Positions 1,649 through 50,628 of a DNA stretch of 64,000 nt are shown here, piece by piece (the first letter of the stretch is position 1; each line of letters starts with the position of its first letter). This DNA comes from Candidatus Parcubacteria bacterium (lineage in GTDB: Bacteria; Patescibacteriota; Minisyncoccia; Phycocordibacterales; JBAYGS01), in contig JBDKKW010000002.1 of NCBI GenBank assembly GCA_039795895.1, forward strand, positions 7,347 to 71,346, given 5' to 3'. The notes below the pieces were generated by a model that was given only the letters and a program-made list of their open reading frames with translations, ran no database searches and had not been told where the DNA came from. The translations under genes were made by a program, and so were the position numbers.

Positions 1649-2275
1649 TTATTGTTCTTCCAAAAGAGCCTTGGAAACAAGAAACCTAAATTGGCCACAG
1701 AACTCTTGTAGTTTACGAGCGCGTTCGACGCGTCCGTATTCGTCGATAGCATAGGCTCGGTACGCACCAATCACTTGTCGAAACAAGGTCTTCATCACAC
1801 CACGACAAGCAACAAACTCTGTCAGACGATTATCAGTCATAACCGATACCGCAACTTCAAGTGGGGTGGTGTTGCAAATCAAAGCACCATGTATTTCTGA
1901 TGTCCGATTCACCTCAAGCAGACAACCATCACTTCTCAAACAAACGCCACGTTCGATCCATCTATGCAAAGACCGATCGCAATCACCAATTTGGTTACTG
2001 CACTTCAGGGGAATCAAGCACCGCACATGATCAGCCCATGTGATGTCTGGCCCGAGCTTTGTCACGGAATCAAACTGCCGCAGACCTTTGTCATACAACT
2101 CATGAGGCTCACCCAGAGGTATCTTCACAAAGGACGGGAGACTAGAGGCAATAAACTCAATCACCCCTCGCAAGACCTTAACCTGCCCCAAAGGCGAGAG
2201 CTTATCAAAACTAGCTTCGATATTCTTATCACCGGAAAGTAACGATTCATCGGACCGTAAAGCAACATCATTCAT
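1649..2275 (-). CDS. Hypothetical protein
   Basis: 208-aa ORF with no recognisable motifs. It is bounded by terminator hairpins. Confidence 0.45.
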   Translation of the reverse strand: MNDVALRSDESLLSGDKNIEASFDKLSPLGQVKVLRGVIEFIASSLPSFVKIPLGEPHELYDKGLRQFDSVTKLGPDITWADHVRCLIPLKCSNQIGDCDRSLHRWIERGVCLRSDGCLLEVNRTSEIHGALICNTTPLEVAVSVMTDNRLTEFVACRGVMKTLFRQVIGAYRAYAIDEYGRVERARKLQEFCGQFRFLVSKALLEEQ

Positions 2276-2415
2276 GCCAATTCCTTTTTTTATAGAACCC
2301 TTCTATTTCAAAAGATACAGGCGACTGTTAGATTTGTCAATGATCGCCTCCCCGACTTGCTTTTTGGAAGCATGATTGCTAGATTGGCTACGGAATTAAC
2401 AGAAAGGTTCTTTAT

Positions 2416-2766
2416 ATGAATGTCAGACTTCAAGCTAGCTTGTTTATGCCCAACGCCCTCCAGTGGGTTGGTGGAGCAAACCCCGCCATCGCTACTTTCG
2501 AGGGAGAATACGACTTACGAGTCGAAAATACCAAGGCTCTTGCGAATCTGTTTGCAAGAAAGCAATTCTTCTGTGGGTGTGATTTTGAAATCGTGACGTA
2601 TCGCGAGGACGAGAATCGACTCATTTTCAGAAGTAATGTCCCGGCCAAGAACATGACTGGTGTCAGGGACTTTTTGAAAACCAACATTATCAACCACCTC
2701 GGCTGGACCATAAACCAGAAGGAACTGGAGCGCTACGCCAGGGCTTTAGAAGAAGCCATCTTTTAA
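2416..2766 (+). CDS. Hypothetical protein
   Basis: 116-aa ORF followed by a plus-strand hairpin and T-run terminator at 2771-2800. Confidence 0.5.
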   Translation: MNVRLQASLFMPNALQWVGGANPAIATFEGEYDLRVENTKALANLFARKQFFCGCDFEIVTYREDENRLIFRSNVPAKNMTGVRDFLKTNIINHLGWTINQKELERYARALEEAIF

Positions 2767-2770
2767 CAAA

Positions 2771-2800
2771 AATCCCACCATACTCTGGTGGGATTTTCTA
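2771..2800 (+). terminator. Rho-independent terminator
   Basis: aatcccaccatactctggtgggatttt stem-loop followed by a T-run. Confidence 0.6.
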
Positions 2801-2807
2801 TTTCAAA

Positions 2808-4394
2808 TTAACCAATCACCTCTTTCAGTCTTTGTATTAAAAACTCCTTATCAAGCACGCTCAAAAACCAACCAGCTTTAGGTCCTGAAGTCTTACCTAA
2901 GACACTCATATAGATAGCCTCAAATAGTTCCTTTGGTGAGATATTGCATCGAGTTTTCATTTCATGAAGTTCGGTATGCAGAAGCTGACCATCGAGTACG
3001 GTCTGTTTTTCGACATACATTAAAAGCGATTTGAGAGCTTCTTTTTGGACAACACTGAAAGATTTTGTGCCTTCTGGGAGAGTCTTTTGAATTTCAAACT
3101 TATAATTCTCTGGCGCATAGCCTGAGAGCCATCGCGAAGCACACTTAGCACGACGCTCAAGCTCTTCCCTGTCTCGTTTGTCTAATTTCACTTCTTCGAG
3201 CTTCTCGATCTCATCTCCGAGGGTCAAATGTGGCATCTGCACCAAAAAAGCCACATTTGAAAAACGTGCGAGCACTCTCTTTTCTAAGAAGTCTTTTCGA
3301 AGTGTTGGGGGCTGAAGAAATGGAAACAGTCGAGCGAAGTCGTCGGTGTTACCCGTCCAGAAATTCTTGGCAAAACGATCGTAGCTATCGTAGAGAATCG
3401 GCACGGTATCACCATCTGGTTTAAATTCTACCGTACGCTGTGGCTCCTTTTGCAAAAGTAGCGTGCGTACCATTTCCGGAGGCAACAGATCTGCCACTTC
3501 TCGTGACGAAGCACCTGCACCCTTTGATGAAGACATTTTTGCACCACCTACTTGCACAAATTCGTATGGAATATTGATCGGCGGTTCACGCTTAAAGACT
3601 TCACGAGAAATAGTATCCGCTATATCTCGCGATCCTCCGCGAGTACTGTGATCCTTGCCTCCGCCTTCGACATCTACATCAAGTACAGTGAATTTTGCCG
3701 CCCATTCTACCTTCCAGGGAAGCTTGGCGTTGCCATCAAACGGAGACACTCGGCCAGTCTTTCCACAACCCTTTGCCCATTCAACAAAATCACCACAGAT
3801 GTACTCTACAGTCTTGCCATCCCAATCTCGTGCTTTGGTAGAACCAATCTTGCCACAATTCTCGCATTTGACTGCAAGTGGAAGCCAGTCAGGATTTTTG
3901 ACCGCACCAGAGACACGCTGATAGATTTCACGAATCAAGCCCGCTTTTTCGAGACTCGTCTTGATCACCTCATTGTATTTTCCACTACGATACAAATCAC
4001 TCGAGCGATAGTGTGTCGGGGTGTAGCCGATTTCCTTTATCACTCCCGTAAATTCATCACCAAAATATTCAGCGTAGTTTTTTGCCTTGTTGTCAGGAGA
4101 CGACACATCACACAAAGGCTTACCCATGTGGGGCAAAAAAGTCTTCTGGTCGAGATACACCGGCAAACCATCCATCGGATCAAAATCATTGAGCTCAAAG
4201 AGGAAGGTGTGTGGTAGTTTCTTTTCAGCTAGGATTTCGGCGATCATACCATGTATCGCCACCCCTCGAAGCGAGCCAATATGTACTCGTCCAGACAAGG
4301 TCTTCTCATCACGAATAATAACCGGCTTTCCGGCTTTTATTTTGTCCGCACAACGAATCTTGATTTGTTCGACGATAGAGTCAGCCCAGAGCAT
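2808..4394 (-). CDS. lysK: Lysyl-tRNA synthetase, class I (archaeal/CPR type)
   Basis: Class I aaRS HIGH-like motif (VHIGSLRG) and KMSKS-like motif (KMSSSKG); about 528 aa if the start is MLWADS at 4394. The ORF track extends to 4526, but that extension is probably untranslated. Confidence 0.85.
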   Translation of the reverse strand: MLWADSIVEQIKIRCADKIKAGKPVIIRDEKTLSGRVHIGSLRGVAIHGMIAEILAEKKLPHTFLFELNDFDPMDGLPVYLDQKTFLPHMGKPLCDVSSPDNKAKNYAEYFGDEFTGVIKEIGYTPTHYRSSDLYRSGKYNEVIKTSLEKAGLIREIYQRVSGAVKNPDWLPLAVKCENCGKIGSTKARDWDGKTVEYICGDFVEWAKGCGKTGRVSPFDGNAKLPWKVEWAAKFTVLDVDVEGGGKDHSTRGGSRDIADTISREVFKREPPINIPYEFVQVGGAKMSSSKGAGASSREVADLLPPEMVRTLLLQKEPQRTVEFKPDGDTVPILYDSYDRFAKNFWTGNTDDFARLFPFLQPPTLRKDFLEKRVLARFSNVAFLVQMPHLTLGDEIEKLEEVKLDKRDREELERRAKCASRWLSGYAPENYKFEIQKTLPEGTKSFSVVQKEALKSLLMYVEKQTVLDGQLLHTELHEMKTRCNISPKELFEAIYMSVLGKTSGPKAGWFLSVLDKEFLIQRLKEVIG

Positions 4395-4623
4395 GAGAGA
4401 AGTATATAGTAAAGAGTAAAGAGTTGCCACTCTTTGATTCAACTTCGACTCGAACACTGTGTACAATAAGAATTGTCCACGTGCTTCTCGCTCGTTGAAA
4501 TAAAAAGTATGAAGACTAAGATACACTCAAAAATCCCTCCCCGGTATCAGAATACCGGTGTGCTCCCTTTTGCAAAGGGAGAATATGAATAGAGGAAAAA
4601 TAAGGAATCCCTTCTTGAACGAG

Positions 4624-4725: not shown

Positions 4726-5193
4726 TTATTCGATGGAAACGACAGTATACTGCATCACCCCCGATGGAGATTTGAAAGAAACTTCATCACCCTTCTTCTT
4801 GCCCATAAGTGCCTGACCAAATGGAGATCGATTTGAGAGCTTGCCTTGGAGCATATTCGTCTCCTCAGAACCCACAATCTTCCACACTTTGGTTGCCTTA
4901 TCACTATTCTTTCGCACTGTTACAGTTGAACCGATTTCCACCTTGTCAGTGTGATGGAACGAGACAATTTTTGCATCCTGAAGAATCGTTTCGATTTTGC
5001 GAATACGCTCTTCAATAGTAGCTTGCATCTCACGAGCCTCCTGGTACTCTGCGTTTTCAGAAAGATCGCCGAGTGATTTTGCAGACTCCAAATTTTCAGC
5101 AACCTGCTTGCGCTTGGTGTGCTTCAATTCAGTGAGCTCGAGAGTCAATTCATCAAATTTTTCTTTGGTTAAATATTCAGTTTGAGCATTCAT
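4726..5193 (-). CDS. greA: Transcription elongation factor GreA
   Basis: 155 aa with an N-terminal coiled-coil (LTKEKFDELTLELTELK ... AENLESAKSLGDLSENAEY) and a C-terminal FKBP-like domain, typical of GreA. Confidence 0.88.
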   Translation of the reverse strand: MNAQTEYLTKEKFDELTLELTELKHTKRKQVAENLESAKSLGDLSENAEYQEAREMQATIEERIRKIETILQDAKIVSFHHTDKVEIGSTVTVRKNSDKATKVWKIVGSEETNMLQGKLSNRSPFGQALMGKKKGDEVSFKSPSGVMQYTVVSIE

Positions 5194-16206: not shown

Positions 16207-16244
16207 GTGAAAGAATAGAGTAGGAGAATAACAAAATAATAAAA

Positions 16245-16280
16245 GAGTAAAACAGCGCGCCGTACTCGGCGCGCTGTTTT
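16245..16280 (+). terminator. Rho-independent terminator
   Basis: aaaacagcgcgccgtactcggcgcgctgtttt. Confidence 0.65.
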
Positions 16281-16299
16281 CTTATCCCGTGTTTCAATA

Positions 16300-16336: not shown

Positions 16337-16900
16337 TTAAGGATTCCACGGGTCCCTTCTCGGATCCTCACACATCTCCCATTTACCAGAGACATCCTGT
16401 CGCTGGAAATGGAACTTGTGAGTAATCTCTCCGTAAGTCATCTTTTTCGGAAACGGATCCTTCTCTTTGACCCACGGGATCGGATGCTTCGCCTGCAAAG
16501 CTTCGAGTCGCATTGGTTCACACACCACTTCGTCTGTCGTGGTACGACGCCCACCCTCAAACACAGACATCACGACGCGATAGAGTGTATCGGAAGAGAC
16601 TCCTGCGAGACCTAGAGCTTTGTCGTATTCGTCGGCAAATCCCCACGGCTGAGCAATTGGGCCCCGGTTATTGCGATTCATCCGAAACCGAATAGATTCT
16701 CCGAGAATCGGTATACGCCCAACAAGAGGCTTTCCAAAGACCACCACCCCGCTACGACACTCGATATGGTGTCCATCTCGCCCACTAAAATAAATATCGT
16801 AGGGCAACGCAATGTCCGGCTCATAGTGAGCAAAGCAGTAGAAATAGCCACTGCCAGACGGTGGCATTTTTGGCACCGCAACAACTTTTGCAATTTCCAT
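16337..16900 (-). CDS. Hypothetical protein (188 aa) downstream of tRNA-Ala
   Basis: The ORF-track N-terminus (to 17107) is a read-through of the tRNA gene. The likely start is MEIAKVV at 16900. No recognised motif. Confidence 0.5.
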   Translation of the reverse strand: MEIAKVVAVPKMPPSGSGYFYCFAHYEPDIALPYDIYFSGRDGHHIECRSGVVVFGKPLVGRIPILGESIRFRMNRNNRGPIAQPWGFADEYDKALGLAGVSSDTLYRVVMSVFEGGRRTTTDEVVCEPMRLEALQAKHPIPWVKEKDPFPKKMTYGEITHKFHFQRQDVSGKWEMCEDPRRDPWNP

Positions 16901-16997
16901 AAGAACAATCCCCCTTTCTGTCACAGCGTGACCTGGTTGGTTTCTGGCACTACTGTATAGGTTTTGGAGAGGAATGCAAGGAAAAAATTCAATCGGG

Positions 16998-17070
16998 TGG
17001 ACCATACCGGATTCGAACCGGTTGCCTCTTCCATGCCATGGAAGCGCTCTACCAAGTGAGCTAATGGCCC
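16998..17070 (-). tRNA. tRNA-Ala (anticodon GGC)
   Basis: Cloverleaf reconstructed by hand: acceptor GGGCCAT/ATGGTCC with the G3:U70 Ala identity pair, anticodon loop ATGGCAT, and T-arm GGTTCGAATCC. CCA is not encoded. Confidence 0.85.
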
Positions 17071-17150
17071 GTGTGACATATTGTACTTGAAAACAGTGAC
17101 CAAACAACTAGTTGCTTTTTAGTTTAAATCAGGTAAGATACTTTGGTATT

Positions 17151-17223
17151 GGGCCCTTAGCTCATCTGGTAGAGCACCTCATTTGCAATGAGGGGGTGGC
17201 AGGTTCGAGTCCTGTAGGGTCCA
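17151..17223 (+). tRNA. tRNA-Ala (anticodon TGC)
   Basis: GGGCCCTTAGCTCATCTGGTAGAGCACCTCATTTGCAATGAGG...GGTTCGAGTCC...AGGGTCCA; G3:U70 present; divergent from the GGC isoacceptor 80 nt away. Confidence 0.85.
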
Positions 17224-17231
17224 CCGAACAG

Positions 17232-17259
17232 AAAAAATCTCCACTGCTGGAGATTTTTT
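17232..17259. terminator. Bidirectional terminator after tRNA-Ala(TGC), also able to terminate the minus-strand RT operon
   Basis: aaaaaatctccactgctggagatttttt. Confidence 0.65.
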
Positions 17260-17490
17260 CGTATGTGTGGAAAGCGCAGGTATATTCTTTCAGCAGAAAA
17301 AATACCGAGCTGGGGTCGCGAGCACTTACGTATTTTGTCGGCTTTTGCGACAAAATACTTAGTGACTCGTGATACACGATAAATAGTAAAAGCGTACTCG
17401 CGGTTCCATATAAAAGTCGCGGGAGAGATTCCTGTAGTGTCTTGGATTTAAATCAAAGGCACCTGACCCCCTTGTCGAGGAAGTTCCGGA

Positions 17491-18453
17491 CTAAAGACCT
17501 GAAATTTCCCGGAGTTTACTCCATTCCTCGAATAGGCTTCTTTTGTCTGGCCGTAGTCCCACATAATGACTTATCTGTCCCGACACTCTATCAACAACCT
17601 GTCCAAGTGTAAGATTTGGGTAATGCTGTCTCCTAAAATCCCTAATACCGATAATTCCACAGATGTATACCGCCTTTTCTACCTCTTCTCTTTTTTGCTT
17701 GATGAGATTTGGCTTTTTATTTACGACAGTCTTTGTCACCGTCTGCCTTTCTGATTGATTGACGGGATTGTCTTCATCTTTATGCACAGTAAAACCATCT
17801 CTTTCAAAGAGTTTCTTTATGTAGTTACAGATTGAAGCATTGATGGTGCTATTACCAGACACAGTAAGATCGTCGATCCAAAAACTATGTTTGAATCCAA
17901 ACTTTTTCAAGAATCCCTGGAGCCTTCTGTCCGTTTTGCCCAAAACTAAAACTGAAACGAGTGGACTTGTTTTGAAACCTTGTGGCAAGTGACCTTCTGC
18001 AGTGACCAAATCTCTGATCATGTTCGCAACATCAGGCTGACATCCCAGATCTCGGAAAGTAAAGAATACTTTCTCTGGTTTTACAGAGGGAAAGAATCTC
18101 TTTATGTCGAATACGGCAATGTTCTTTTTATTACTATGGATTTGTGCGTGAGAAGACAGGGAACGACCTTTTATCGCACCTTGAAACTGAACCGGAATGT
18201 CGAGCCGATATAATAAATTCTTGAGAAGTTTAGCGTGTATAGCCTCAAGTTCCGGACTTGCTTGATAGAAGTCTCTCGACTTTCCTTTTTTATCCTGCCA
18301 TGTTCGCTTGGTGTAATGTTTATCTTTTTCTTTTAGTATTGCTTCGATAACGTCCAAAGGAACCCCGATCTGGTGGGCTAATTCTTTTGTTCTATTTATC
18401 TTCAATGATTCAAGCGTTTTTTTCATCAGCAAGAAGCATTGTTTCAAACTCAC
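17491..18453 (-). CDS. Reverse transcriptase, retron-type
   Basis: 320 aa. RT motifs run in the expected order: FDIKRFFPSV (motif 2/A), LPQGFKTSPLVS (QGxxxSP), and FWIDDLTVS (YxDD-like, close to the retron Ec86 YADDLTLS). The retron-specific block KGRSLSSHAQIH matches GxSxxxNAxxH, and a VTK(TVVN) stretch sits where the retron VTG motif lies. Confidence 0.85.
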   Translation of the reverse strand: MSLKQCFLLMKKTLESLKINRTKELAHQIGVPLDVIEAILKEKDKHYTKRTWQDKKGKSRDFYQASPELEAIHAKLLKNLLYRLDIPVQFQGAIKGRSLSSHAQIHSNKKNIAVFDIKRFFPSVKPEKVFFTFRDLGCQPDVANMIRDLVTAEGHLPQGFKTSPLVSVLVLGKTDRRLQGFLKKFGFKHSFWIDDLTVSGNSTINASICNYIKKLFERDGFTVHKDEDNPVNQSERQTVTKTVVNKKPNLIKQKREEVEKAVYICGIIGIRDFRRQHYPNLTLGQVVDRVSGQISHYVGLRPDKRSLFEEWSKLREISGL

Positions 18454-18736
18454 TCACAATATCATTCAACTTCTTGCGAACAATTTTGTCGTTTCTAGTT
18501 TTTCCATGAGGAATAAGAATATCTTTTGCCAAAATTAGGATAGGAAAATCGTACTCCTTTGATATTTTCTTGAGAAGAGGCATTCCTGGTTTCTTTGCTC
18601 CATTCTCAATAAGAGAAATGTAGTTAGCAGAAACACCAAGACTCTTCGCAATTTGTTCTTGCGACAAGCCTTGTTTAATTCTTATTTTTTTAATTGTGTT
18701 TCCGATTTCTTTCATAAACGTCTTGATAACTGGCAC
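18410..18736 (-). CDS. XRE-family helix-turn-helix protein, translationally coupled to the RT
   Basis: QGLSQEQIAKSLGVSANYISLIENG helix-turn-helix. The 3' end overlaps the RT start by 44 nt. Confidence 0.8.
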   Translation of the reverse strand: MPVIKTFMKEIGNTIKKIRIKQGLSQEQIAKSLGVSANYISLIENGAKKPGMPLLKKISKEYDFPILILAKDILIPHGKTRNDKIVRKKLNDIVSEFETMLLADEKNA

Positions 18737-18769
18737 CGAAAATTACCGATAATTCAGTTGCTTTCGGTG

Positions 18770-19015
18770 CTAGTTGGTCTTGGTCATGTGCCTGATTACT
18801 TCGGTGGCAAGTGAGAGGAGATATGGGAGAACCTTATCGACATAATGTCGAGTCAGACTCTTCTTTTTATCTTTCTCAATGGCCTCCTCGTAAAGAGCGC
18901 GTGTACGTACCAACAAGCCTGCGAGCGCCTTGCAGCGCTTGCAGTGTGGTGAAGGTTGCCATTTTTTGAGAGCAATGGTCAGCTCTTCGTACATCTTATT
19001 CTCGTAATGAGACAT
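18770..19015 (-). CDS. Small hypothetical protein (81 aa) at the head of the RT operon
   Basis: Same strand as the RT, 33 nt upstream of the helix-turn-helix gene, with a CKRCK motif. It could instead be non-coding. Confidence 0.35.
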   Translation of the reverse strand: MSHYENKMYEELTIALKKWQPSPHCKRCKALAGLLVRTRALYEEAIEKDKKKSLTRHYVDKVLPYLLSLATEVIRHMTKTN

Positions 19016-19189
19016 ATTTTTGAATGTTTAGGGACGTGCCGAGTTTCAGACATGACAGTCATTCAGACTTCCTAGCGGCTAATAATAATACCGGTACATT
19101 CAAGCGACAACAAAAACTAAACAGGCCGCGGGTTCCTAACCTTACACCTAAAATCATCCACGGCCTGCTAGCTTTCGCTGGGCCTGACT

Positions 19190-19330
19190 GCACCGATTGA
19201 CAGATGAGCAGTATGATGACTGATATGCATGCTGGATGCTTCGTCGTGTCTGTCGTCATGTGCTTAAGCACATTGCGACATGCACGAGACAGCTAGCAGC
19301 GTGCATCATGGTCATGTTGGTGGGTGGGAC
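19190..19330 (-). ncRNA. Candidate retron non-coding RNA (msr/msd-like long imperfect hairpin)
   Basis: About 95-nt imperfect palindrome centred on catgtgcttaagcacatg; the arms match at about 75% when folded by eye. It lies in a 540-bp non-coding region upstream of the RT operon. Confidence 0.4.
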
Positions 19331-19584
19331 TGACGTCCAAAGACGTTATGGAAAAATCCATAAAAAGGCATTTCTGCCTGTTGTTAGGGCGGCTTGTATT
19401 CAAACCTTCACTTTTTACGTTGATGACAAGGTGCTAGGAGAGTCAAAGACTTTCCAGAGGAGCGAACTCCTCCGCTATCCATTATTTCAAACTCTAACTT
19501 TTTGTCAATGCCCTAAAAGTGTATAAGGTACTAACAACCCCACGTCACTCCTGAAGCAAAAGGACTTCTGTACAATATAAATTC

Positions 19585-19611
19585 AAAACCCCGCCAACTT
19601 CGTTGGCGGGG
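19585..19611 (-). terminator. Rho-independent terminator for the ddl/small-ORF transcript
   Basis: ccccgccaacttcgttggcgggg with a T-run on the minus strand. Confidence 0.65.
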
Positions 19612-19616
19612 TGATC

Positions 19617-19793
19617 TTACAAACGCTTCTTCCGACGGATTTTCCAGGTAGGTCTCTTGGGGAGGGTCTGATCCCGAGCTGCCTCAATCCGATTAAACTT
19701 TTCCACCTGACACTGCTGGCAGGAACAATGGTACCCCACTGCATCCCCCGTCACACAGCCCGCATGATTCCCAGACCGACAAGCCTGACACAT
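19617..19793 (-). CDS. Small Cys-rich basic protein (58 aa), hypothetical
   Basis: Hand translation: MCQACRSGNHAGCVTGDAVGYHCSCQQCQVEKFNRIEAARDQTLPKRPTWKIRRKKRL. It lies between ddl and the terminator and falls below the ORF-track length cutoff. Confidence 0.3.
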   Translation of the reverse strand: MCQACRSGNHAGCVTGDAVGYHCSCQQCQVEKFNRIEAARDQTLPKRPTWKIRRKKRL

Positions 19794-19841
19794 CTTCTAT
19801 CCTTTCATTTTTAGAACATTTCTAAATGCAAACTATCAGAT

Positions 19842-20813
19842 TTACTTCTTCATCGCAAGCTTAAGCGTGTGCCCAATAAATTCAGACAAAGAGCTTCCTA
19901 CCGCACCCAATGCCTTTGGAAAAAGAGAGGTCTTGGTCAGTCCCGGTAAAGTGTTTACCTCCAAAAAATACACCCCCCGGCGCGGATGGACAATAAAATC
20001 AGAACGTGAGTAATGCTTGAGTCCGAGTATTTTGTGTACTGCCATCGCCGAATCCTGAATCAATTTTTTCTCAGCCGATGTAAATGTGCCCGGACACAAC
20101 TCGGTGACTTCCCCACTATATTTACTAGTATAATCAAAAAGCACTCCTTCTTTTTTTGGCAACACAATCTCCACCGGCATCAGCGCATACAAATCCTGCC
20201 CTCGGAATCGTTCAATCACGCCACAGGTCGCTTCTTTGCCCAGGATATATTCCTCAATCAACGCCTCAGGTGCGTATTCAAACGCGTGTACGAGCGCACG
20301 AGAGAGTTCAGGGAGTGTCTTTGCGACAGATACCCCGACCGACGAGCCCGACGAGACAGGCTTTACAATCGCAGGCATCGGAAAGGTTTTAAATAGCTCA
20401 ACTACTTTCGCATGCGTCAGCTCGGTGTGCTTGAGCGTGAGGTAATGTGGAGTCTTGATACCCTGCGCTTTGGATAATTTCTTGGTCAGGGCTTTATTCA
20501 TCCCAATCGCTGAAGCGAGCGCGCCCGATCCGGTATACGGGACACCAAAACTATCGAGTAGCTTTTGCAATTTCCCATCTTCGCCAAATTCGCCGTGAAG
20601 AGCATTGAAAACCACATCTACTTTTTTCAAAATATCTTTCGGCTCTCGACGCACACCTTCAAAATGCCAGTTGCCCGCTTTATCAATAAAAATATCATGA
20701 CCGGTGTATTCTTCCGGCAAGCTATCGAGCACGGTACGACCCGTCTTCAAAGAGACCTCAAATTCTGATGAGGGTCCGCCGGATAAAACCGCCACACGAG
20801 TCTTTCTAAACAT
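19842..20813 (-). CDS. ddl: D-alanine--D-alanine ligase
   Basis: ATP-grasp motifs. The N-terminus MFRKTRVAVLSGGPSSEFEVSL is typical of Ddl. The ORF-track extension to 20897 runs into an upstream repeat. Confidence 0.85.
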   Translation of the reverse strand: MFRKTRVAVLSGGPSSEFEVSLKTGRTVLDSLPEEYTGHDIFIDKAGNWHFEGVRREPKDILKKVDVVFNALHGEFGEDGKLQKLLDSFGVPYTGSGALASAIGMNKALTKKLSKAQGIKTPHYLTLKHTELTHAKVVELFKTFPMPAIVKPVSSGSSVGVSVAKTLPELSRALVHAFEYAPEALIEEYILGKEATCGVIERFRGQDLYALMPVEIVLPKKEGVLFDYTSKYSGEVTELCPGTFTSAEKKLIQDSAMAVHKILGLKHYSRSDFIVHPRRGVYFLEVNTLPGLTKTSLFPKALGAVGSSLSEFIGHTLKLAMKK

Positions 20814-43726: not shown

Positions 43727-43799
43727 TCCGTGGTAGCTCAGCTGGTAGAGCGCCTCGCTGTTAACGAGGATGTCCTTGGTTCGATCCCAAGCCACGGAG
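43727..43799 (+). tRNA. tRNA-Asn (anticodon GTT)
   Basis: TCCGTGGTAGCTCAGCTGGTAGAGCGCCTCGCTGTTAACGAGG...GGTTCGATCCCAAGCCACGGAG; 7-bp acceptor stem, anticodon loop CTGTTAA, discriminator G. Confidence 0.85.
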
Positions 43800-45503
43800 C
43801 AAAGTTGGACAGACCGAGGCAAAAACCTCGGTTTTGTCTTTATCTGCCTCACACAATCTAGGTTCGAACGCTTCATTTTGTGACTTTGCTGTAAGTAAGC
43901 CCTTAGAGATGATCGAGAACACATCTTTGTTGGTAATACTGAGTTTTTTAGTCTTTAGAATTAGGTTCGAACCGAGAGCCGACAATGCCTCTTGTTTCTC
44001 CTCAAAGGTGCCTGTACGGAAGATTTCACTCAGTCCGACGATCAACTTGAAGGCTTTCTTTGTTTCTTCAAAGTTCGCGGTATCAACTCCGCCAATGTCA
44101 GCGAGTACTTGCTTGATTCTACGCTTATCATTCTCAAGCGACTCTTTGTGTTTTAAGAATTCGTCGTCATTTTCAATAAGTCCCTTCATGCGCATGCGCA
44201 CCAATTCCTGAGACTCACGCTCTTTTTGTGCCAACTCTCGCTCCCATGTACCTTTACGCTCATATTCAGTTTGCCGATCTTGTGTAGCAAGGGTCTCAAG
44301 ATTTTGAATACACCACTGACTCAACGCTTCCGAAACCTCAAGTTTCTTTTGTAGCTCTTCAATCATTGTGTCGTCAATGTGTGACTCACTAACACTCCGC
44401 TCCGGACACGTTTCATCCCTTCGCTTGGTGCAGTGATAGAAAATATAATGAAGATAGGTCGGATGATCCATCTTTTCGATTTTAGTTTCGCACTTGGGGC
44501 ATACCTCACGATTTTTATACGCAAACTTAAATTTGCACTCAAAACAAATAAGTTGATGTTTATGCTCGGCGGTCACGGATCCACCGCAGGTACCACATTT
44601 CGTCCGGCCTCGGTACGGAAACATCTTGATGTTCACACTCGGACACGGCTGACCCTTTCGGCCCAGCATTGCTTGAATCTGCCAATATTGAGCCTCTGTG
44701 ATCATTCTCGGGACAGTCTCATCTACTTCATAGCGTTTAGATTCCCTGTTTTCATCCAATCCGTAAAAGAAACCTGCATAGTATGGGTCTTTAAGCATGG
44801 CATAAATTCGAGAGAGCTTGATAGCCGTGCCACCCTCTTTCTGCCGTCGAATTGTTTTTAATCCCATGACTTCATCAGAGTATTTGAGTAGTGACCGTAC
44901 AGAATATTTACCCGTTAGATACATCTCAAGAAGTTTCTTGACCAATGGAAAGCGATCGGGGTCAACCACGATGCGTCGCTCCCCTTTCTTTCCGTAATCG
45001 TTGATATAGCCAGGCTTTGCAATGCCACCAGGAATACCCATTTCATTTTTCTTGCGAAGGCCTCGCTGAACATCGATACCTTTTGAATCGTTTTCCATCT
45101 TTGCCTGGCTCGTAAGCATACTAAAGAAGAATTTATCTTGTGGTGTATTCCGATAAACCTGACTTGGTGTAACAATTTCGTGTAGGTGACCTTTATCCAT
45201 CTGCTCAATGAGTCGCGCAGCGTCGATGGCGTTTCGAGCAAAGCGATTTGGATGCCACCCGATAACTCCTTGTACTTTTTTCTGTTCAATGTCTCGGATC
45301 AATTGCTCAAAAACAGGACGCGTATAAGCCGTTTTTGCTGAGTGAGATTCGTGCAATATCTGATCATCAGAAAGGTGAATCTTTCTACTCTCAGCGAGCT
45401 TGCGTAGTTCATTGACTTGAGAATCAATCGACAGAACTTGTTTATCATCTGCCTCACTGGACTTGCGCGCATAAAGTCGATAGTTTATTTTTGTTGTTGT
45501 CAT
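43761..45503 (-). mobile_element. Large serine recombinase (resolvase/invertase N-domain, recombinase domain, zinc ribbon)
   Basis: YARKSS catalytic Ser region; recombinase domain; Cys cluster CGTCGG...CFECKFKF...CPKCETKI. The 3' end of the ORF overlaps the tRNA-Asn 3' half by about 39 nt. Confidence 0.85.
43812..43840 (+). terminator. Rho-independent terminator after tRNA-Asn
   Basis: ccgaggcaaaaacctcgg followed by ttttgtcttt. Confidence 0.6.
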
Positions 45504-45922
45504 AAATCAAAAAGTCTAAAATAATAAAGATAATATCCTCATACACTATCAAGATTTTCTTATGTAGTCTGCATTTTTGTGAAGAATTAATTAATAAATA
45601 CTGATACACGGCCGACCGCTCTTAGCCCCCACGAACCCACTCTCCCCCTACCCCCATGGTTGGTACCATTGGAGCTTCGCCGTGCCTTTGATCCGTTTTT
45701 TCTCGGAGGCGACTTGGTTTTAGTTGTGGTACCGCCTAGCGCAAGCGCTCCCGGCCCCGTACATAATTGCGTTAAAAACCTCTCGCTACACCGCAATTAG
45801 AGGTGGCTTAATGTTGTACCGATACCCGGCATCCCAATCTTGTGGGATCACAAAGCCTTCCTATGTCTATTTTATTTTTACAAGCCCCACATAGGTTCGC
45901 CCAGGGCTTGAATGGGCGTGCT

Positions 45923-46174
45923 CTATTGCACACTGGTATTTGCCACAAGAGAGTTTTCCTCTCTTGCTTGAACGAACGCCACCTTTGCATTCGCTCGAGC
46001 AAGAACAGAAAGTCCGACACGTGTCAGGCGCAACAAAGACATACCAAGCTCGACTGCTTGGTCATCAGAAATCGATACGCCGTTTTCGTTGAGTACGATT
46101 TCTTTTAATTCTTTTGTGGCTTTTTGTGACAACATAAAAAGACCCCTCAATCTTAAAGGGGGCTTTTCATTCAA
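45923..46174 (-). CDS. Small hypothetical protein (83 aa)
   Basis: ORF between the recombinase and the regulator; no motif identified. Confidence 0.3.
   Translation of the reverse strand: MNEKPPLRLRGLFMLSQKATKELKEIVLNENGVSISDDQAVELGMSLLRLTRVGLSVLARANAKVAFVQAREENSLVANTSVQ
46140..46172 (-). terminator. Rho-independent terminator for the regulator gene
   Basis: gccccctttaagattgaggggtc plus a T-run on the minus strand. Confidence 0.5.
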
Positions 46175-46194
46175 TATTCATTCATTAATATGAA

Positions 46195-46905
46195 TCAGAA
46201 TTTTTTATTCAACTCTAGCTTCCAGCCAGTCTTTGCTGAATTGAAAATAACCTTATGGCCAAAGGCTTCCTTCAGTCTTTTGTGTAATTCACTTACATAC
46301 TTTGCAACAGTTTGATTAGATATTCCCAACCGCTTATCTGAAGAGAAAATCTCATCTTTAATATCATCAATATTAACAACCTTCCCATGATTATTCATAA
46401 ATAATCGACAGAGGACAGTGAGTTGCCCCCTGAGGGAAACATCTTTTCCTTTATATTTAATTGAGCCATCGACACAAGCACTCAGATCGTAAATCTTTAT
46501 CTCATCTTTGATACGTGCTGTGCGTAATTGCCTTCTAACAATTTGTTCTTTAATCTCCTCAAAATAAAGATCTAACTTAGAAGAATCGTCCACATGTACT
46601 ACAAAGCCAAGTACAGACGGAGGTCGTGGTACAGGGAAAAAATTATCACGACTCGCCATGAGAGAACTACCTGGAGGTATACCCGCCTCAATAGAAGAAG
46701 TACACTCCCTAAAAGAAATGAGGTTTTTCGTCCCTTCACTAACCAACCCTAGAGTTTTTCTTAATCCGTCCCTATCTCTCAACAAAGGATCATCTTTAAT
46801 TCTATGGAAAATAAACTTAACTGATTCCTTGTCCGACCCTCTTAGTTCCATACGAAGAATCTCGTGCACTCTTTCTATCTTTAAAATTTGGAGGTCTTTT
46901 TCCAT
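46195..46905 (-). CDS. Transcriptional regulator with C-terminal OmpR/PhoB-type winged-helix DNA-binding domain
   Basis: C-terminal RLGISNQTVAKYVSELHKRLKEAFGHKVIFNSAKTGWKLE resembles the trans_reg_C pattern. The N-terminal domain is unknown. Confidence 0.6.
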   Translation of the reverse strand: MEKDLQILKIERVHEILRMELRGSDKESVKFIFHRIKDDPLLRDRDGLRKTLGLVSEGTKNLISFRECTSSIEAGIPPGSSLMASRDNFFPVPRPPSVLGFVVHVDDSSKLDLYFEEIKEQIVRRQLRTARIKDEIKIYDLSACVDGSIKYKGKDVSLRGQLTVLCRLFMNNHGKVVNIDDIKDEIFSSDKRLGISNQTVAKYVSELHKRLKEAFGHKVIFNSAKTGWKLELNKKF

Positions 46906-47036
46906 ATTTTTAATACTAATCTCTTTAGGCCCAAATATGCAAGCTTTCGCAAGAATTGATTGTACGAATTGCAGTTAAGATGTTAAACTTTACAATACAA
47001 CTGAATATGGCCTAACCCGTTGATTTTATCAACGGT

Positions 47037-47657
47037 ATGGCAATCAAAAGTCCTGGAAAGACACAAAAACCCCGTCATGGGTGTTGTCTTTCCAGGCCGT
47101 ATTGGGAAACTGGTACGCTCGGCGAAAGCCGAGGCCCCGTGGCGGGATTTTTGTGTACCTCACGGGTTTATCCATTAAAGATAAACCTCATGCAAGAACG
47201 CATTTTAAAAAAGGAGGACAAGCTCGTTTATTGGGCAGGCATCTTAAATCCTAAAAAAGGAAGTCTCGTATTAACGAATAATCGGCTTTATTTCACAGTA
47301 GATAACAAGGAGCTATTCTCTATTCTACTTAGCAATGTTTTGAGTGTGAATTGTCAAAAAGGAATTGGCACCAGTAATGAAAATATGTTCGTGATCTACA
47401 AAGATGGCGACAAAGAAAAGAAGGTCAAAATACAGCACAGTTCACTCATGTCTCTTGCCACTGTTGGTAATCTATCTCGAATTAGTGCTTCCTATTTCTC
47501 CTCATGGGAGCAGGCTATCAACTCAGCACGCTCAGGCAATCAGGACAACGAAAAAGGCTCGATAGATGATTTAGAGAGACTCTCAGAACTTAAAAAGAAA
47601 GGTATTTTAACTGAGGAAGAATTTTCTGCAAAAAAGAAGCAGATACTTGGCATATAA
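47037..47657 (+). CDS. SHOCT-domain protein with N-terminal PH/GRAM-like domain
   Basis: C-terminal LSELKKKGILTEEEFSAKKKQILGI matches the SHOCT motif. The likely true start is MQERIL at about 47190, since the upstream part of the ORF is a structured leader. Confidence 0.6.
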   Translation: MAIKSPGKTQKPRHGCCLSRPYWETGTLGESRGPVAGFLCTSRVYPLKINLMQERILKKEDKLVYWAGILNPKKGSLVLTNNRLYFTVDNKELFSILLSNVLSVNCQKGIGTSNENMFVIYKDGDKEKKVKIQHSSLMSLATVGNLSRISASYFSSWEQAINSARSGNQDNEKGSIDDLERLSELKKKGILTEEEFSAKKKQILGI

Positions 47658-47659
47658 AT

Positions 47660-48133
47660 ATGAAAAAGATTTATACATTCTTTCTGGCAATCCCCTTATT
47701 TCTCTCCACAACCCCCACCTTCGCCTCCACGCACTGTCTCTCCAACCAAGCACTGCCTGATCACACCTGTACCCCAGGAGCAATACTCACCACAGACGCT
47801 CTTATCGTCTGTGTCTCTGGCTACACTAAAACCGTCCGTAACGTTTCTACGGCAGTCAAAAAGATGGTATTCAAGGAATATGCTATTCCGTGGTCACTAC
47901 ATAGTAACTACGAAGTAGATCACTTGATTAGTCTTGAGCTGGGCGGAAGCAATGATGTTAGCAACCTATGGCCTGAATCGTACCTAATCAAGGATGGATC
48001 GCGTACCAAGGATACCTTTGAGAACTACCTCCATAGACAGGTGTGTGGAGGCAAATTGAGCCTTGTGGAGGCCCAGAAGGAGATCAAGGGAGGTTGGAGA
48101 GAGTATTATCGGGAGTGGAAGCACTTGAATTAG
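47660..48133 (+). CDS. Secreted HNH-family endonuclease
   Basis: Signal peptide followed by EVDHLISLELGGSNDVSNLWPE (HNH motif). Confidence 0.6.
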   Translation: MKKIYTFFLAIPLFLSTTPTFASTHCLSNQALPDHTCTPGAILTTDALIVCVSGYTKTVRNVSTAVKKMVFKEYAIPWSLHSNYEVDHLISLELGGSNDVSNLWPESYLIKDGSRTKDTFENYLHRQVCGGKLSLVEAQKEIKGGWREYYREWKHLN

Positions 48134-48807
48134 TTACAAGGATTTTTCTGTGTAAATTGCTTAACCAGAACTGAAAAATTACTCCACAGACTCGGATCAA
48201 CTTCTTGATCTCTCTTGATTAAACTCTGGATGTCTTTATTTTCCCATGTCTTTTGTATTTGATAACCAAAATCAGCGTTTATCATACTACACTCAACAAT
48301 ACCCTCCCGATAAAAGTTTCCCATTTCCTCAAAAACACCCAAATAATTTTCTACCTGACCCTTAGAAAATCCTGGGGCACCAGTCCGATTAAGAATTTTT
48401 GTACTTGGATCCGCCGAATCTAATTTATCTGAAATAGCTGAATAGGTTGGTTGGTTAAGCTGGGTATCAAAATTAAGCACAATATCGGAGGAATCCTTGA
48501 GATGATTCTCGTGTAGTTGATCCTTGGAAATCCAAACTGTCGCAAAACCAACAATTAATGCGATCATTACTCCTGCAATACTTATCCTATTGAGAGCCGT
48601 GGCCAATTTTCCAGCAGCATCACCACTCTCTTTTGCTTGTGCAGTAACAGCATCAAGAATCTTCTTGATCTCAACCATTGCGTTTTTTAATTCAAGTACT
48701 GACTTCGCAATGAGAACCGACTCGGATTTCTGAGCCCGAGTATCTCCACCTTCACTTACATACTCCGCCAATTGTTCAATGCTTTTACTAAAAAGATTTT
48801 CTGGCAT
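48130..48807 (-). CDS. Hypothetical membrane protein
   Basis: 225 aa with one transmembrane segment. Confidence 0.45.
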   Translation of the reverse strand: MPENLFSKSIEQLAEYVSEGGDTRAQKSESVLIAKSVLELKNAMVEIKKILDAVTAQAKESGDAAGKLATALNRISIAGVMIALIVGFATVWISKDQLHENHLKDSSDIVLNFDTQLNQPTYSAISDKLDSADPSTKILNRTGAPGFSKGQVENYLGVFEEMGNFYREGIVECSMINADFGYQIQKTWENKDIQSLIKRDQEVDPSLWSNFSVLVKQFTQKNPCN

Positions 48808-48982
48808 AAATATACTGGGTGAGTAAGGACTTGAATGAGACGTTGAAGATAAGTCATCATTTTATCATACCCCGCTCAGTTTCAGTTTCTTGCAAAAAGT
48901 GATTTGTGTCAAATTGCATCATCTAAATAAAAGCCTTAAGGACTTCTTGAGTACCCTAAATTTATTATGTAAATCAGCTATA

Positions 48983-49969
48983 TTAGTTGATCTTAAAATT
49001 AAATGGGTAAGGGATGTATTCTTTTACAAATTTCTCAAGTGACTTCATTTCCAAAGGCGAGAAGATAAAATTGAATGAATTGTGTGTTAAGTTATAATTA
49101 AAAATATCCACCATCTGTCTTGTGGAAGACGTGATCCTTTCCTCACACTCCTTTCGTCGATTTAGAGTTACCCCGAGATTTTTTGTTAAAGAAAAGAAAA
49201 CTTCTGTATGAGGGCTCAACAAACTTTTGGGGCTATTATAAAAATCAACCTTTTCCTTGGGTACAAAATAAACTACTGGATTATCGGAAGTTACAAAATA
49301 CCTAGAATCTGACTTTAAAATAGTGAGGTTCATCCTGCGTAATATTTCAGCAATGGGCTCAAGTTCCGTAAGGGCAGTTTTTAAAAAATACCCGTTTGGA
49401 TATTTTAGGTTATATCTTTTTTCAACGATATTCTTTTTTATCTTTTCGGCCTGTTCAAGAGATATCTCCTCCCCTGCCTCTTTTTTTGCCAAGCCAACAA
49501 TTTCTCCCGCAGACATTAGTTCAAATCTTTTGCTTGTATGATGCTTGGAAAGATTCGAGTCAATATCTTCAATTTGTGATTTAAAATGAGGAGTTCGTAC
49601 AAGCATGGCGGCCATAAACAAACACAATTCGTCCTTGATGTCTTCAGTAATCCTTGTATTTATAGCCAATGATTCAACCTTTCCAACCAGGGTGTTATAC
49701 GTATCTTCTCCACAATCTTTAAAAATATCTTCGACATCATCACTACTGAAACCTTCCATACCCGGATCATATAGATTATTCTCCAAACCTATGTTTTTTA
49801 AGCCTTCTTCACCGTTAATTAATAAAATTCGCTTTTCGAATGGAGAATTCTCTTTTAAAAACTTTTCACCCTTCTTGTACATAAAAAGATTACTCTCAAG
49901 TAAAAAATGTCTGAGATATGTTTGAGGAATATAATGATTTCGAATGGTTCTTTTCTTAATTTTAGACAT
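48983..49969 (-). CDS. DUF4238 family protein
   Basis: N-terminal HYIPQTYLRHF matches the DUF4238 signature (HYVPQFYLxxF); lies in an AT-rich segment. Confidence 0.6.
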   Translation of the reverse strand: MSKIKKRTIRNHYIPQTYLRHFLLESNLFMYKKGEKFLKENSPFEKRILLINGEEGLKNIGLENNLYDPGMEGFSSDDVEDIFKDCGEDTYNTLVGKVESLAINTRITEDIKDELCLFMAAMLVRTPHFKSQIEDIDSNLSKHHTSKRFELMSAGEIVGLAKKEAGEEISLEQAEKIKKNIVEKRYNLKYPNGYFLKTALTELEPIAEILRRMNLTILKSDSRYFVTSDNPVVYFVPKEKVDFYNSPKSLLSPHTEVFFSLTKNLGVTLNRRKECEERITSSTRQMVDIFNYNLTHNSFNFIFSPLEMKSLEKFVKEYIPYPFNFKIN

Positions 49970-50628
49970 AAATACAGTCTCTAACGTAGAAAAATCAATC
50001 GTACAACAATTCTTTTTAAAAAGACAGTTTTAGTGGATAGAGTTGCTATCCACAGGAAAATAAAGTAATATCTCGGACTCGAGATATAATAGAAAAACCA
50101 GCAGATCGTGCTTAAACAATAAGCTGGTTTTCCCTTTAGAAAAGGCTCAGGCTATGCTTGAGCTTTTTCGCTACCAATTTTCTTCCAAATTGGGAAACAT
50201 TTGGCCGACTTAGGTCGGATCACTTTGCCACTTTTCAATTTCTTGAAAGGTATGCAGGCGACCATGACGTAGCCCGCTCGAGTCTGTGTATTCACTGGAC
50301 TTTGTCCCTTTGATTTCAAGTAGCTTCTGCCAACCAAACATCGACCGGTATGGTTGCGACTATTATCCTACCCGACCTGCACAGGAACCAGCGCAGGCTT
50401 AGTGTGATAACACCACTTCAATCTCAAAAAGAAAAAGAACCCACTCCACAGGCCGATAAGATTTCTTATCAGCTGTGGATTAGGTTCTTTTCTTAAAAGG
50501 ACTTCTCTTTTAGCTAATAATGACTCCTGCCGGACTGTGCGTTCCATGTGGATTTTCCACTAGGAACACCTTGATTTTCTCTCGTTCTAGTAATAAAGTC
50601 AAGTGAAACAAAATGTATCTGAGGAAAC

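Follow-up and report, generated by a model that had tools for sequence, protein, structure and literature searches.

Retrons of type VI, as defined by Mestre et al. (2020), pair a reverse transcriptase (RT) of clade 3 with a Cro/C1-type helix-turn-helix (HTH) protein of 91-110 aa, whose gene lies upstream of the RT gene or overlaps it, and they often include a 75-79-aa auxiliary protein with a three-helix fold, encoded upstream of the HTH gene. The named clusters of this small protein (SP) are cl2075, 2760, 3272 and 3897, and the published type VI set, in its 'Large' lineage, includes entries from Candidatus Levybacteria (Mestre-729) and Candidatus Woykebacteria, both of the candidate phyla radiation (CPR). 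Here we describe a locus of this general design in a genome of Candidatus Parcubacteria (GCA_039795895.1, contig JBDKKW010000002.1), lying in a stretch of 64,000 nt (7,347-71,346 of the forward strand) that we call the window and to which the positions below refer unless a related locus is named. Our essential contention is that this locus is very probably a self-contained type VI retron, an RT-based anti-phage system; it is a further member of a family already described and no new kind of system.

Two type VI retrons have recently been characterised in preprints. In Vpa2 of Vibrio parahaemolyticus (Zhang et al., bioRxiv 10.1101/2025.10.22.683967), a single hybrid RNA comprises the upstream RNA together with the SP coding sequence; in it the ribosome-binding site and start of SP are sequestered, and conserved 7-nt direct repeats occur, one in an msd loop and the other in a riboregulator loop. 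The RT, the HTH protein and the RNA form a complex, and the multicopy single-stranded DNA (msDNA) builds up only on triggering, when it permits translation of SP, which is the toxin; defence needs RT catalysis. In Sen3 of Salmonella enterica (Garcia-Rodriguez et al., bioRxiv 10.64898/2026.04.27.721009), SP is instead constitutive and neutralised by the HTH protein, the trigger consists in RecBCD inhibition, and the HTH-SP module functions without RT or non-coding RNA (ncRNA). Pairing between two inverted repeats (IR1 and IR2) joins the ncRNA of Sen3 to sequence just past the SP stop codon, and an RNA-level constraint on the SP coding sequence is reported for the Sen3 lineage.

The Parcubacterial locus was first noticed in an original prediction, made from the sequence alone, which proposed a retron whose RT has a small HTH protein as partner, with a small open reading frame (ORF) and a structured RNA upstream; this core reading is supported. 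The prediction considered the effector logic of an HTH-only partner unclear, and this concern falls away, as the 81-aa ORF corresponds to the type VI SP toxin characterised in the 2025-2026 preprints. Nor does its view that no such system had been characterised in a CPR-like genome hold, given the Woykebacteria and Levybacteria entries, the latter already assayed for msDNA in E. coli. The components of the conserved cassette, which runs from 19508 to 17491 on the minus strand (about 2.02 kb), lie in this order:

19508-19481, minus strand: predicted promoter, with a -35 box TTGACA (19508-19503) and a -10 box AATAAT (19486-19481)
19016-19474, minus strand: ncRNA part of the hybrid RNA, about 457 nt between the predicted start of transcription and the SP start codon
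18770-19015, minus strand: SP gene, 81 aa with three predicted helices, a CKxC motif and a hydrophobic C-terminal helix
18410-18715, minus strand: HTH gene of Cro/C1 (XRE) type, 101 aa from Met8
18426-17491, minus strand: RT gene, 311 aa from Met10, whose product would by analogy catalyse msDNA synthesis

Set beside the type VI definition, the locus has an RT that matches the RT_VI profile, an HTH protein of 101 aa, a three-helix SP of 81 aa, and the gene order SP-HTH-RT; it also has the parts expected of a hybrid RNA, a structured ncRNA upstream of SP and an inverted repeat after the SP stop codon. A search of the RT against profiles, which the original prediction had suggested, gave RT_VI as the best PADLOC profile (E = 4.7e-60, 201 bits, best of 44 matching RT families), with RT_III-A second at 175 bits, a modest lead for a type assignment that is profile-based. 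All 25 PADLOC matches listed are retron RTs, and NCBIfam adds sub-threshold matches to the retron St85, TIR and Ec67 models, while matches to the group II maturase model TIGR04416 (19.6 bits, cut-off 300) and to Drt3a (20 bits, cut-off 200) are negligible and Pfam recognises only the generic RVT_1 domain. Among solved structures, a sequence search of the PDB places the RTs of retrons Ec86, Kva2, Ec67 and Ec83 closest (Ec86: E = 2.7e-20, residues 16-254), and every PDB match is a retron RT. The catalytic residues D116, LPQG and D194 D195 (within WIDD) are invariant over 33 clade members, and the gene is under purifying selection, with a ratio of nonsynonymous to synonymous change (pN/pS) of 0.10-0.20. 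On viral contigs relatives are only distant, at no more than 35% identity.

The RT motifs quoted in the original prediction are all present in the ORF as first read (17491-18453, minus strand, 320 aa from GTG): in 320-aa numbering, KGRSLSSHAQIH occupies residues 95-106, WIDDLTVS 192-199 and VTKTVVN 239-245. The HTH ORF was likewise first read from a GTG (18410-18736, minus strand, 108 aa), and the translational overlap of 44 nt claimed for the two genes is correct for these ORFs. However, the database call for a 100% identical RT from a metagenome-assembled genome of Candidatus Parcubacteria has 311 aa, starting at Met10, and the gene calls of close relatives give an RT of 311 aa (312 in one) and an HTH protein of 101 aa; the shorter genes listed above are therefore the likely ones, and with these starts the overlap is 17 nt. 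No Shine-Dalgarno sequence is visible ahead of SP, HTH or RT.

The HTH protein matches HTH_3 in Pfam (E = 3.7e-15), its best PADLOC match is HTH_VI (E = 5.6e-19), and its gene is also under purifying selection (pN/pS 0.11-0.29). By analogy with described type VI retrons it is presumed to be the antitoxin or repressor partner, and SP, on the same grounds, is presumed to be the toxin. That the predicted 81-aa ORF is a real gene follows from its purifying selection (pN/pS 0.08-0.45 between the window and close relatives) with third-position bias. SP is one of a family of 22 proteins (21 of 78-81 aa and one of 121 aa) that share a near-invariant CxxC motif; it has no match in Pfam, PADLOC or NCBIfam and no meaningful PDB match by sequence or fold. 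An AlphaFold2 model (pLDDT, the predicted confidence, 71.5) shows three helices, at residues 3-18, 26-50 and 56-79, with the hydropathy maximum at residues 62-70, in the C-terminal helix. In the same locus pairs, synonymous divergence is 0.27-0.50 for SP and 0.77-0.85 for the RT. The low value for SP suggests that its coding sequence is constrained at the RNA level, and so would itself be part of the structured RNA; alternatively, the 5' half of the cassette may have been exchanged more recently.

Comparison with related loci defines the unit. Close relatives (L161-L167) have RTs 73-86% identical to that in the window and distant relatives (L081, L001, L084, L106, L168-L172 and L197-L199) 36-49%; close and distant relatives carry the same three genes in the order SP-HTH-RT, L106 being counted on its RT match and promoter element alone, and the named hosts are CPR bacteria (Moraniibacteriota, Patescibacteria group). 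Among close relatives nucleotide homology starts exactly at the -35 hexamer and stops within a few bases of the RT stop codon, while the flanking genes vary from locus to locus, and the conserved unit is therefore 19508-17491. The horizontal acquisition that the original prediction had suggested is supported; the unit contains neither a recombinase gene nor terminal repeats. Two groups of loci were set aside. A set of distant CPR loci that are type VI-like and have another type of SP (L002-L010, L092, L104 and L108) shares none of the motifs described below, and the region of the SP stop has no significant complement in the RNA upstream, so that the RNA family is confined to the subclade with the CKxC-type SP; and Proteobacterial and Bacteroidota loci found with an RT profile were other retron types without an HTH gene, unfit as type VI comparators.

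Some relatives have neighbours of defence or phage type. In L168 a gene for an Mrr_cat restriction endonuclease (2127-3047) begins 12 nt past the RT stop codon, L166 has a GP3_package gene (3996-4475) and L165 a Bro-N gene (4781-5107); the surroundings of the cassette are thus in some cases of a mobile or defence kind, unlike in the window. Public gene calls also place ORFs inside the ncRNA of relatives, one of 71 aa in antisense (L161-L164, about 2402-2617 in L161) and one of 64 aa (L170, 1985-2179), both of which are probably spurious.

The predicted promoter agrees with the consensus at 11 of 12 positions and has a 16-nt spacer ending in TG. The 18-mer TTGACAAAAAGTTAGAGT, made up of the -35 box and 12 nt of the spacer, is nearly invariant in 16 related loci (loci with the element are L001, L081, L084, L106, L161-L172 and L197-L199), as is the spacer sequence AAAAGTTAGAGT directly after the -35 box (19503-19491 in the window). 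The 18-mer occurs as a single copy and is confined to this subclade. Because it is kept while the -10 box and all upstream sequence vary across loci, the promoter-spacer element probably serves as an operator, to which the HTH protein might bind.

Downstream of this promoter lies a long structured RNA, whose elements were defined by per-sequence folding and tables of pairing arms over 13-16 loci. Alignment with MAFFT followed by RNAalifold on sub-domains had mis-registered the H2 hairpin and the P3/P4 loops and was replaced by this approach. The order of elements is constant (P1, m1, P3-P5, a variable region, IR1, H2, a linker, SP, IR2), and in the window they are:

19456-19473, minus strand: extra 5' hairpin, GGAGGAG UUCG CUCCUCU
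19437-19455, minus strand: hairpin P1, immediately 5' of m1
19424-19434, minus strand: m1, the invariant motif GCACCUUGUCA, complementary to the apical loop of H2
19379-19366, 19361-19348 and 19346-19333, minus strand: P3, P4 and P5, small hairpins resembling msr stem-loops
19216-19315, minus strand: long imperfect hairpin with 50-nt arms, 70% complementary
19190-19196, minus strand: IR1, UCGGUGC, the 5' arm of a long-range helix
19100-19187, minus strand: H2, a conserved long hairpin with the core CAGGCCGUG / CGCGGCCUG
18764-18770, minus strand: IR2, GCACCGA, the 3' arm of the long-range helix, beginning with the final base of UAG, the SP stop codon
18728-18775, minus strand: local hairpin IR2:IR1' with 14-nt arms, 93% complementary, in which IR1' (18741-18733) is a copy of IR1

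The ncRNA is 65-94% identical to that of close relatives, against 22-38% for the sequence upstream of it, and at the nucleotide level it is as conserved as the SP coding sequence; nhmmer detects it in the distant loci L081, L001 and L084 as well. Its predicted fold is far more stable than dinucleotide shuffles (z = -8.1 for the ncRNA and -11.8 for the ncRNA with SP). The 540-bp non-coding region of the original prediction is indeed free of genes, but resolves into the terminator of the upstream gene (19612-19588), the promoter and the transcribed ncRNA. The 15-mer TTGACWAAAAGTTAG can serve as a seed sequence for finding further members of this RNA family.

A long-range helix between IR1 and IR2 encloses both H2 and the entire SP coding sequence, and it overlaps the SP stop codon. 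The helix is 7-10 bp long in 16 loci, with one covarying position that is G:C in eight, A:U in seven and G:U in one (L198); in distant members the duplex has 8-10 bp and covers the whole stop codon, and RNAalifold found it independently. This helix is the counterpart here of the a1/a2 repeats of other retrons. A second long-range contact joins m1 to the sequence AGGUGU (19149-19144) in the large apical loop of H2, with 5-7 bp in 13 of 13 loci (98.7% of cells paired) and a C:G pair replaced by U:A in L081, L171 and L172. The H2 core itself has 9 bp, with 100% of cells paired and two pairs changed on both sides, and although the sequence of its lower stem differs between subclades the long hairpin is retained. 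P1 forms in all 13 loci despite differing sequences (seven pairs, five with both sides changed), and the layout of P3-P5 is also the same in 13 of 13 loci, with compensatory changes in the arms (three pairs changed on both sides in P5). The extra 5' hairpin is found only in the window, L161, L165, L166 and L167, and not in distant members.

An unbiased scan over all column pairs recovered the H2 core, IR1:IR2 and m1:H2-loop. Across the six chosen helices 88.2% of cells are paired, compared with 35-42% when the partners are slid. The same helices have 15 pairs changed on both sides, against 2-8 in slid controls, and 0 of 500 shuffles reach the observed values of either measure; these are counts of sequences, behind which the key compensatory changes may amount to perhaps one to three independent events. 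Two further pairings were considered. A terminal stem resembling a1/a2 (about 19450-19432 with about 19076-19053), seen in the fold of the window, was rejected, since L166 and the distant loci do not retain it and its formation would compete with that of the covarying P1. A possible pairing of GUGARGGU with SP codons 20-26 (ACCYUCAC) recurs at the homologous place in several lineages, but its length is equalled in 18-37% of shuffles.

Directly 5' of IR1 lies a hairpin-rich region of 94-167 nt whose sequence is variable, and it contains the imperfect msd-type palindrome that the original prediction had remarked on (the long hairpin at 19216-19315). The sequence of this region drifts while a long hairpin is kept, L166 having a different, near-perfect one. 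Because the hairpin persists despite varying sequence, adjoins IR1 and fits the description of SL3 in Sen3, it is plausible as the msd, the template that is reverse-transcribed, and it is the best candidate for this role. On the other side of SP, the local hairpin IR2:IR1' lies just 5' of the HTH start codon in five close loci and is absent from distant ones; as modelled, it is an alternative to IR1:IR2.

Compared by description, Vpa2 resembles the window in its operon of structured RNA, SP, HTH and RT, in a single transcript that holds both the template that is reverse-transcribed and the SP coding sequence, in an inverted repeat past the SP stop codon that pairs back into the upstream RNA, and in a small helical SP with a hydrophobic C-terminal helix. 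It differs in that its SP has 55 aa, compared with 81 aa and a CKxC motif here, and its RT has YADD where ours has WIDD; the conserved 7-nt loop repeats of Vpa2 are not clear in the window, where instead an invariant 5' motif is complementary to the H2 loop within the RNA itself.

The likeness to Sen3 and the cl2075 lineage extends to the size of SP (79 and 81 aa) and its hydrophobic nucleus (63-69 and 62-70), to an HTH gene upstream of the RT gene (with the 17-nt overlap in the window), to a hairpin at the 5' end of the RNA, to a long internal stem-loop whose centre is not conserved and which IR1 adjoins, to an IR2 just past the SP stop codon, and to RNA-level constraint on the SP coding sequence. 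As to differences, SP belongs to another family with undetectable sequence similarity, the SP ribosome-binding site of Sen3 is sequestered in a basal stem where the SP start in the window is predicted to be open, and the Sen3/cl2075 hosts are Beta- and Gammaproteobacteria where ours is a CPR bacterium; the conservation of the promoter spacer and the m1:H2-loop contact are present in the window and were not met in the sections consulted on Sen3. The Levybacteria and Woykebacteria entries are, like ours, type VI retrons of Patescibacteria genomes, from the Microgenomates group rather than the Parcubacteria group. Ec86 (Eco1; PDB 7v9u and others) has the closest RT of solved structure, with the same palm and finger motifs, but it belongs to type II: its msr-msd is canonical and has terminal a1/a2 repeats, its effector is nucleoside deoxyribosyltransferase-like, an SP or HTH module is lacking, and its RNA encloses no coding sequence.

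Several observations weigh against taking the locus for a working type VI retron. We infer msDNA synthesis, toxicity, antitoxin action and defence by analogy with Vpa2 and Sen3, the only type VI retrons for which they are known; and the sole CPR type VI retron assayed, that of Levybacteria, yielded no detectable msDNA in E. coli, being one of the six type VI retrons of the census, for none of which msDNA was detected. The window RT has SHAQIH in place of SNAxxH and VTK in place of VTG, the signature motifs of retrons; its five closest relatives have SHAxIH (one SHTxIH) with VTK, VTN or VTR, and most of the clade members that are more distant keep the canonical motifs. The modest lead of RT_VI over RT_III-A and the possibly few independent events behind the covariation count on the same side. 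The covariance-model search and the search for a1/a2 repeats with a branching G, both recommended by the original prediction, returned little: no Rfam retron RNA family matched, either in 16-21 kb at E up to 10 or across the whole window at gathering thresholds, and neither a canonical terminal a1/a2 pair nor a conserved G beside IR1 or IR2, and hence no branching G, could be assigned. The other region proposed for an RNA search, 17264-17490 on the 3' side of the RT, is not conserved in relatives and lies outside the element. Finally, no conserved helix forms at the SP start region, leaving the sequestration of ribosome-binding site or start of both published systems unmatched, and 7-nt direct repeats of the Vpa2 kind are not convincing across the clade (15 loci).

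These points lend something to the notion that the locus is only an SP/HTH toxin-antitoxin pair, its RT and RNA template degenerating or serving another role with no msDNA made: the altered NAxxH and VTG motifs of the window subclade, the six msDNA-negative type VI retrons and the autonomy of the HTH-SP module in Sen3 would all fit. Yet an RT with pN/pS of 0.10-0.20 and invariant catalytic residues, an RNA conserved with covariation upstream of SP, and the need for RT catalysis in Vpa2 defence all argue otherwise, and we regard this as quite improbable. It is more improbable still that the retron is of another type, such as III-A, with a chance HTH neighbour; the RT_III-A score is near that of RT_VI, but the best match of the HTH protein is the type-VI-specific HTH_VI, the order SP-HTH-RT recurs in every related locus examined, and, with homology ending at the RT stop codon, there is no further conserved accessory gene. 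As for an RT element of a different kind (a diversity-generating retroelement (DGR), a group II intron, or an RT of the abortive-infection (Abi) or DRT type), DGRs are frequent in Patescibacteria according to the literature, and the Pfam match is to the generic RVT_1 domain only. However, the interval 16900-19900 has no template/variable repeat pair (its longest direct repeat, 73% identical, measures 26 nt), Rfam searches of 16-21 kb at permissive E-values turn up no intron RNA, and the negligible maturase and Drt3a scores contrast with uniformly retron matches in PADLOC and the PDB, so that such an origin is scarcely credible.

The sequence shows one promoter that drives a long structured transcript; SP is encoded in its 3' half, and the HTH and RT genes, which overlap, come next. 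To judge from Vpa2 and Sen3, the RT and HTH proteins would bind the hybrid RNA and the RT would copy the variable hairpin into single-stranded msDNA; SP would be a small helical toxin whose hydrophobic C-terminal helix leads to growth arrest, and the HTH protein would hold the system silent. Phage infection might be sensed through phage recombination proteins or RecBCD inhibition, upon which SP activity would be freed and the infection aborted. We lean weakly towards control of the Sen3 kind, in which the HTH protein would neutralise SP post-translationally and probably also repress the promoter, because the SP start is predicted to be open and the invariant element overlaps the promoter.

A type VI retron controlled as in Vpa2, with the hybrid RNA repressing SP translation until msDNA made only in infection unmasks the SP start, is a serious alternative, although we hold it to be the less likely one. 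The layout of the hybrid RNA is the same, and in some lineages parts of the m1 region recur as 7-8-nt repeats in the variable hairpin region, so that the cDNA could pair with m1 and displace the m1:H2-loop contact. Such repeats occur in nine of 15 loci, in differing words (ACCUUGU(C) in L001, L168, L169 and L084; GUCAUCA in four of five in the group of the window). However, six loci lack them (L166, L081, L170, L171, L197 and L198), and taken singly they come to no better than about p = 0.1 against shuffles (0.01 in one). No conserved helix involves the SP start region, and in 13 of 13 loci the prediction for this region (-18 to +6) is of greater openness than elsewhere in the RNA (0.47-0.77 unpaired, against 0.31-0.45). 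We also considered that the hybrid RNA of the CPR subclade might be a translation-coupled switch unlike both Vpa2 and Sen3, coupling toxin translation, antitoxin translation and reverse transcription, which we think doubtful. On this account, the SP stop codon lying inside IR1:IR2, a ribosome finishing SP would have to melt the helix between template domain and coding domain, and the freed IR2 could, in the window lineage, pair with IR1' just upstream of the HTH start codon; the open SP start, the invariant 5' motif locked to the H2 loop and the invariant element over the promoter would be further parts of such a switch.

The immediate genomic surroundings of the cassette include the following:

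16996-17070, minus strand: tRNA-Ala(GGC)
17151-17225, plus strand: tRNA-Ala(UGC)
19612-19588, minus strand: strong intrinsic terminator of the upstream gene

The two adjoining tRNA genes are thus as predicted, and the insertion point lies between this tRNA-Ala pair and ddl. The neighbours are genes for a class II aminoacyl-tRNA synthetase, an RseP-like protease, RRF, G6PD, Ddl, UvrC, UvrA and MreB; the cassette is a solitary insertion among housekeeping genes and not part of the defence island that had been envisaged. The GC shift from which this was partly argued exists, at 0.414 for the cassette against about 0.475 for the flanks, but it is modest and is due to the HTH (0.34) and RT (0.40) genes, the ncRNA with SP being at 0.47. 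Fifty nt past the RT stop codon, a 26-nt stretch (17416-17441) is 73% identical to the 3' end of tRNA-Ala(UGC) (17196-17221), which could be the remnant of an old attachment site or a chance match. Between ddl and the retron promoter, outside the conserved cassette, lies a cysteine-rich ORF of 58 aa without a Pfam match (19617-19793, minus strand). On the other side, a 256-aa ORF (16337-17107, minus strand), also without a Pfam match, spans tRNA-Ala(GGC) and probably does not represent a true gene, and a GC-rich terminator-like hairpin at about 16248-16281 draws several weak Rfam matches (within 16219-16285).

The part of the window that is truly island-like lies elsewhere. A tRNA-Asn gene (43727-43800) is abutted by a large serine recombinase of 580 aa (43761-45503, minus strand), beyond which, at 46-50 kb, GC content falls to 0.34-0.39 and the genes encode a winged-helix regulator and SHOCT, DUF4760 and DUF4238 proteins; the interval 43727-50000 looks like an integrated mobile element. 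A match to the Rfam LOOT RNA (RF03000; 47009-47133, plus strand; 84.4 bits against a gathering score of 46.4) lies in this low-GC putative element and overlaps the start of the SHOCT-domain ORF.

This study adds to the type VI retrons a well-defined, RNA-rich subclade from CPR bacteria, at a time when the mechanism of the type is debated between translational control, as in Vpa2, and post-translational control, as in Sen3. Comparison of 16 loci yields RNA elements that can be tested, namely an IR1:IR2 helix that spans the stop codon, the m1:H2-loop contact, the promoter-spacer element and a variable hairpin as template candidate, to which the alternative IR2 hairpin is a further new detail, although these details together do not make the system one of a new kind. 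With its sharp boundaries, the cassette is a 2-kb unit that occurs in varied contexts, and no mobility gene is visible in it. The genomes of CPR bacteria are small and their recognised defence systems few, and it is for this reason that a compact abortive-infection module under selection in such bacteria would be of ecological interest.

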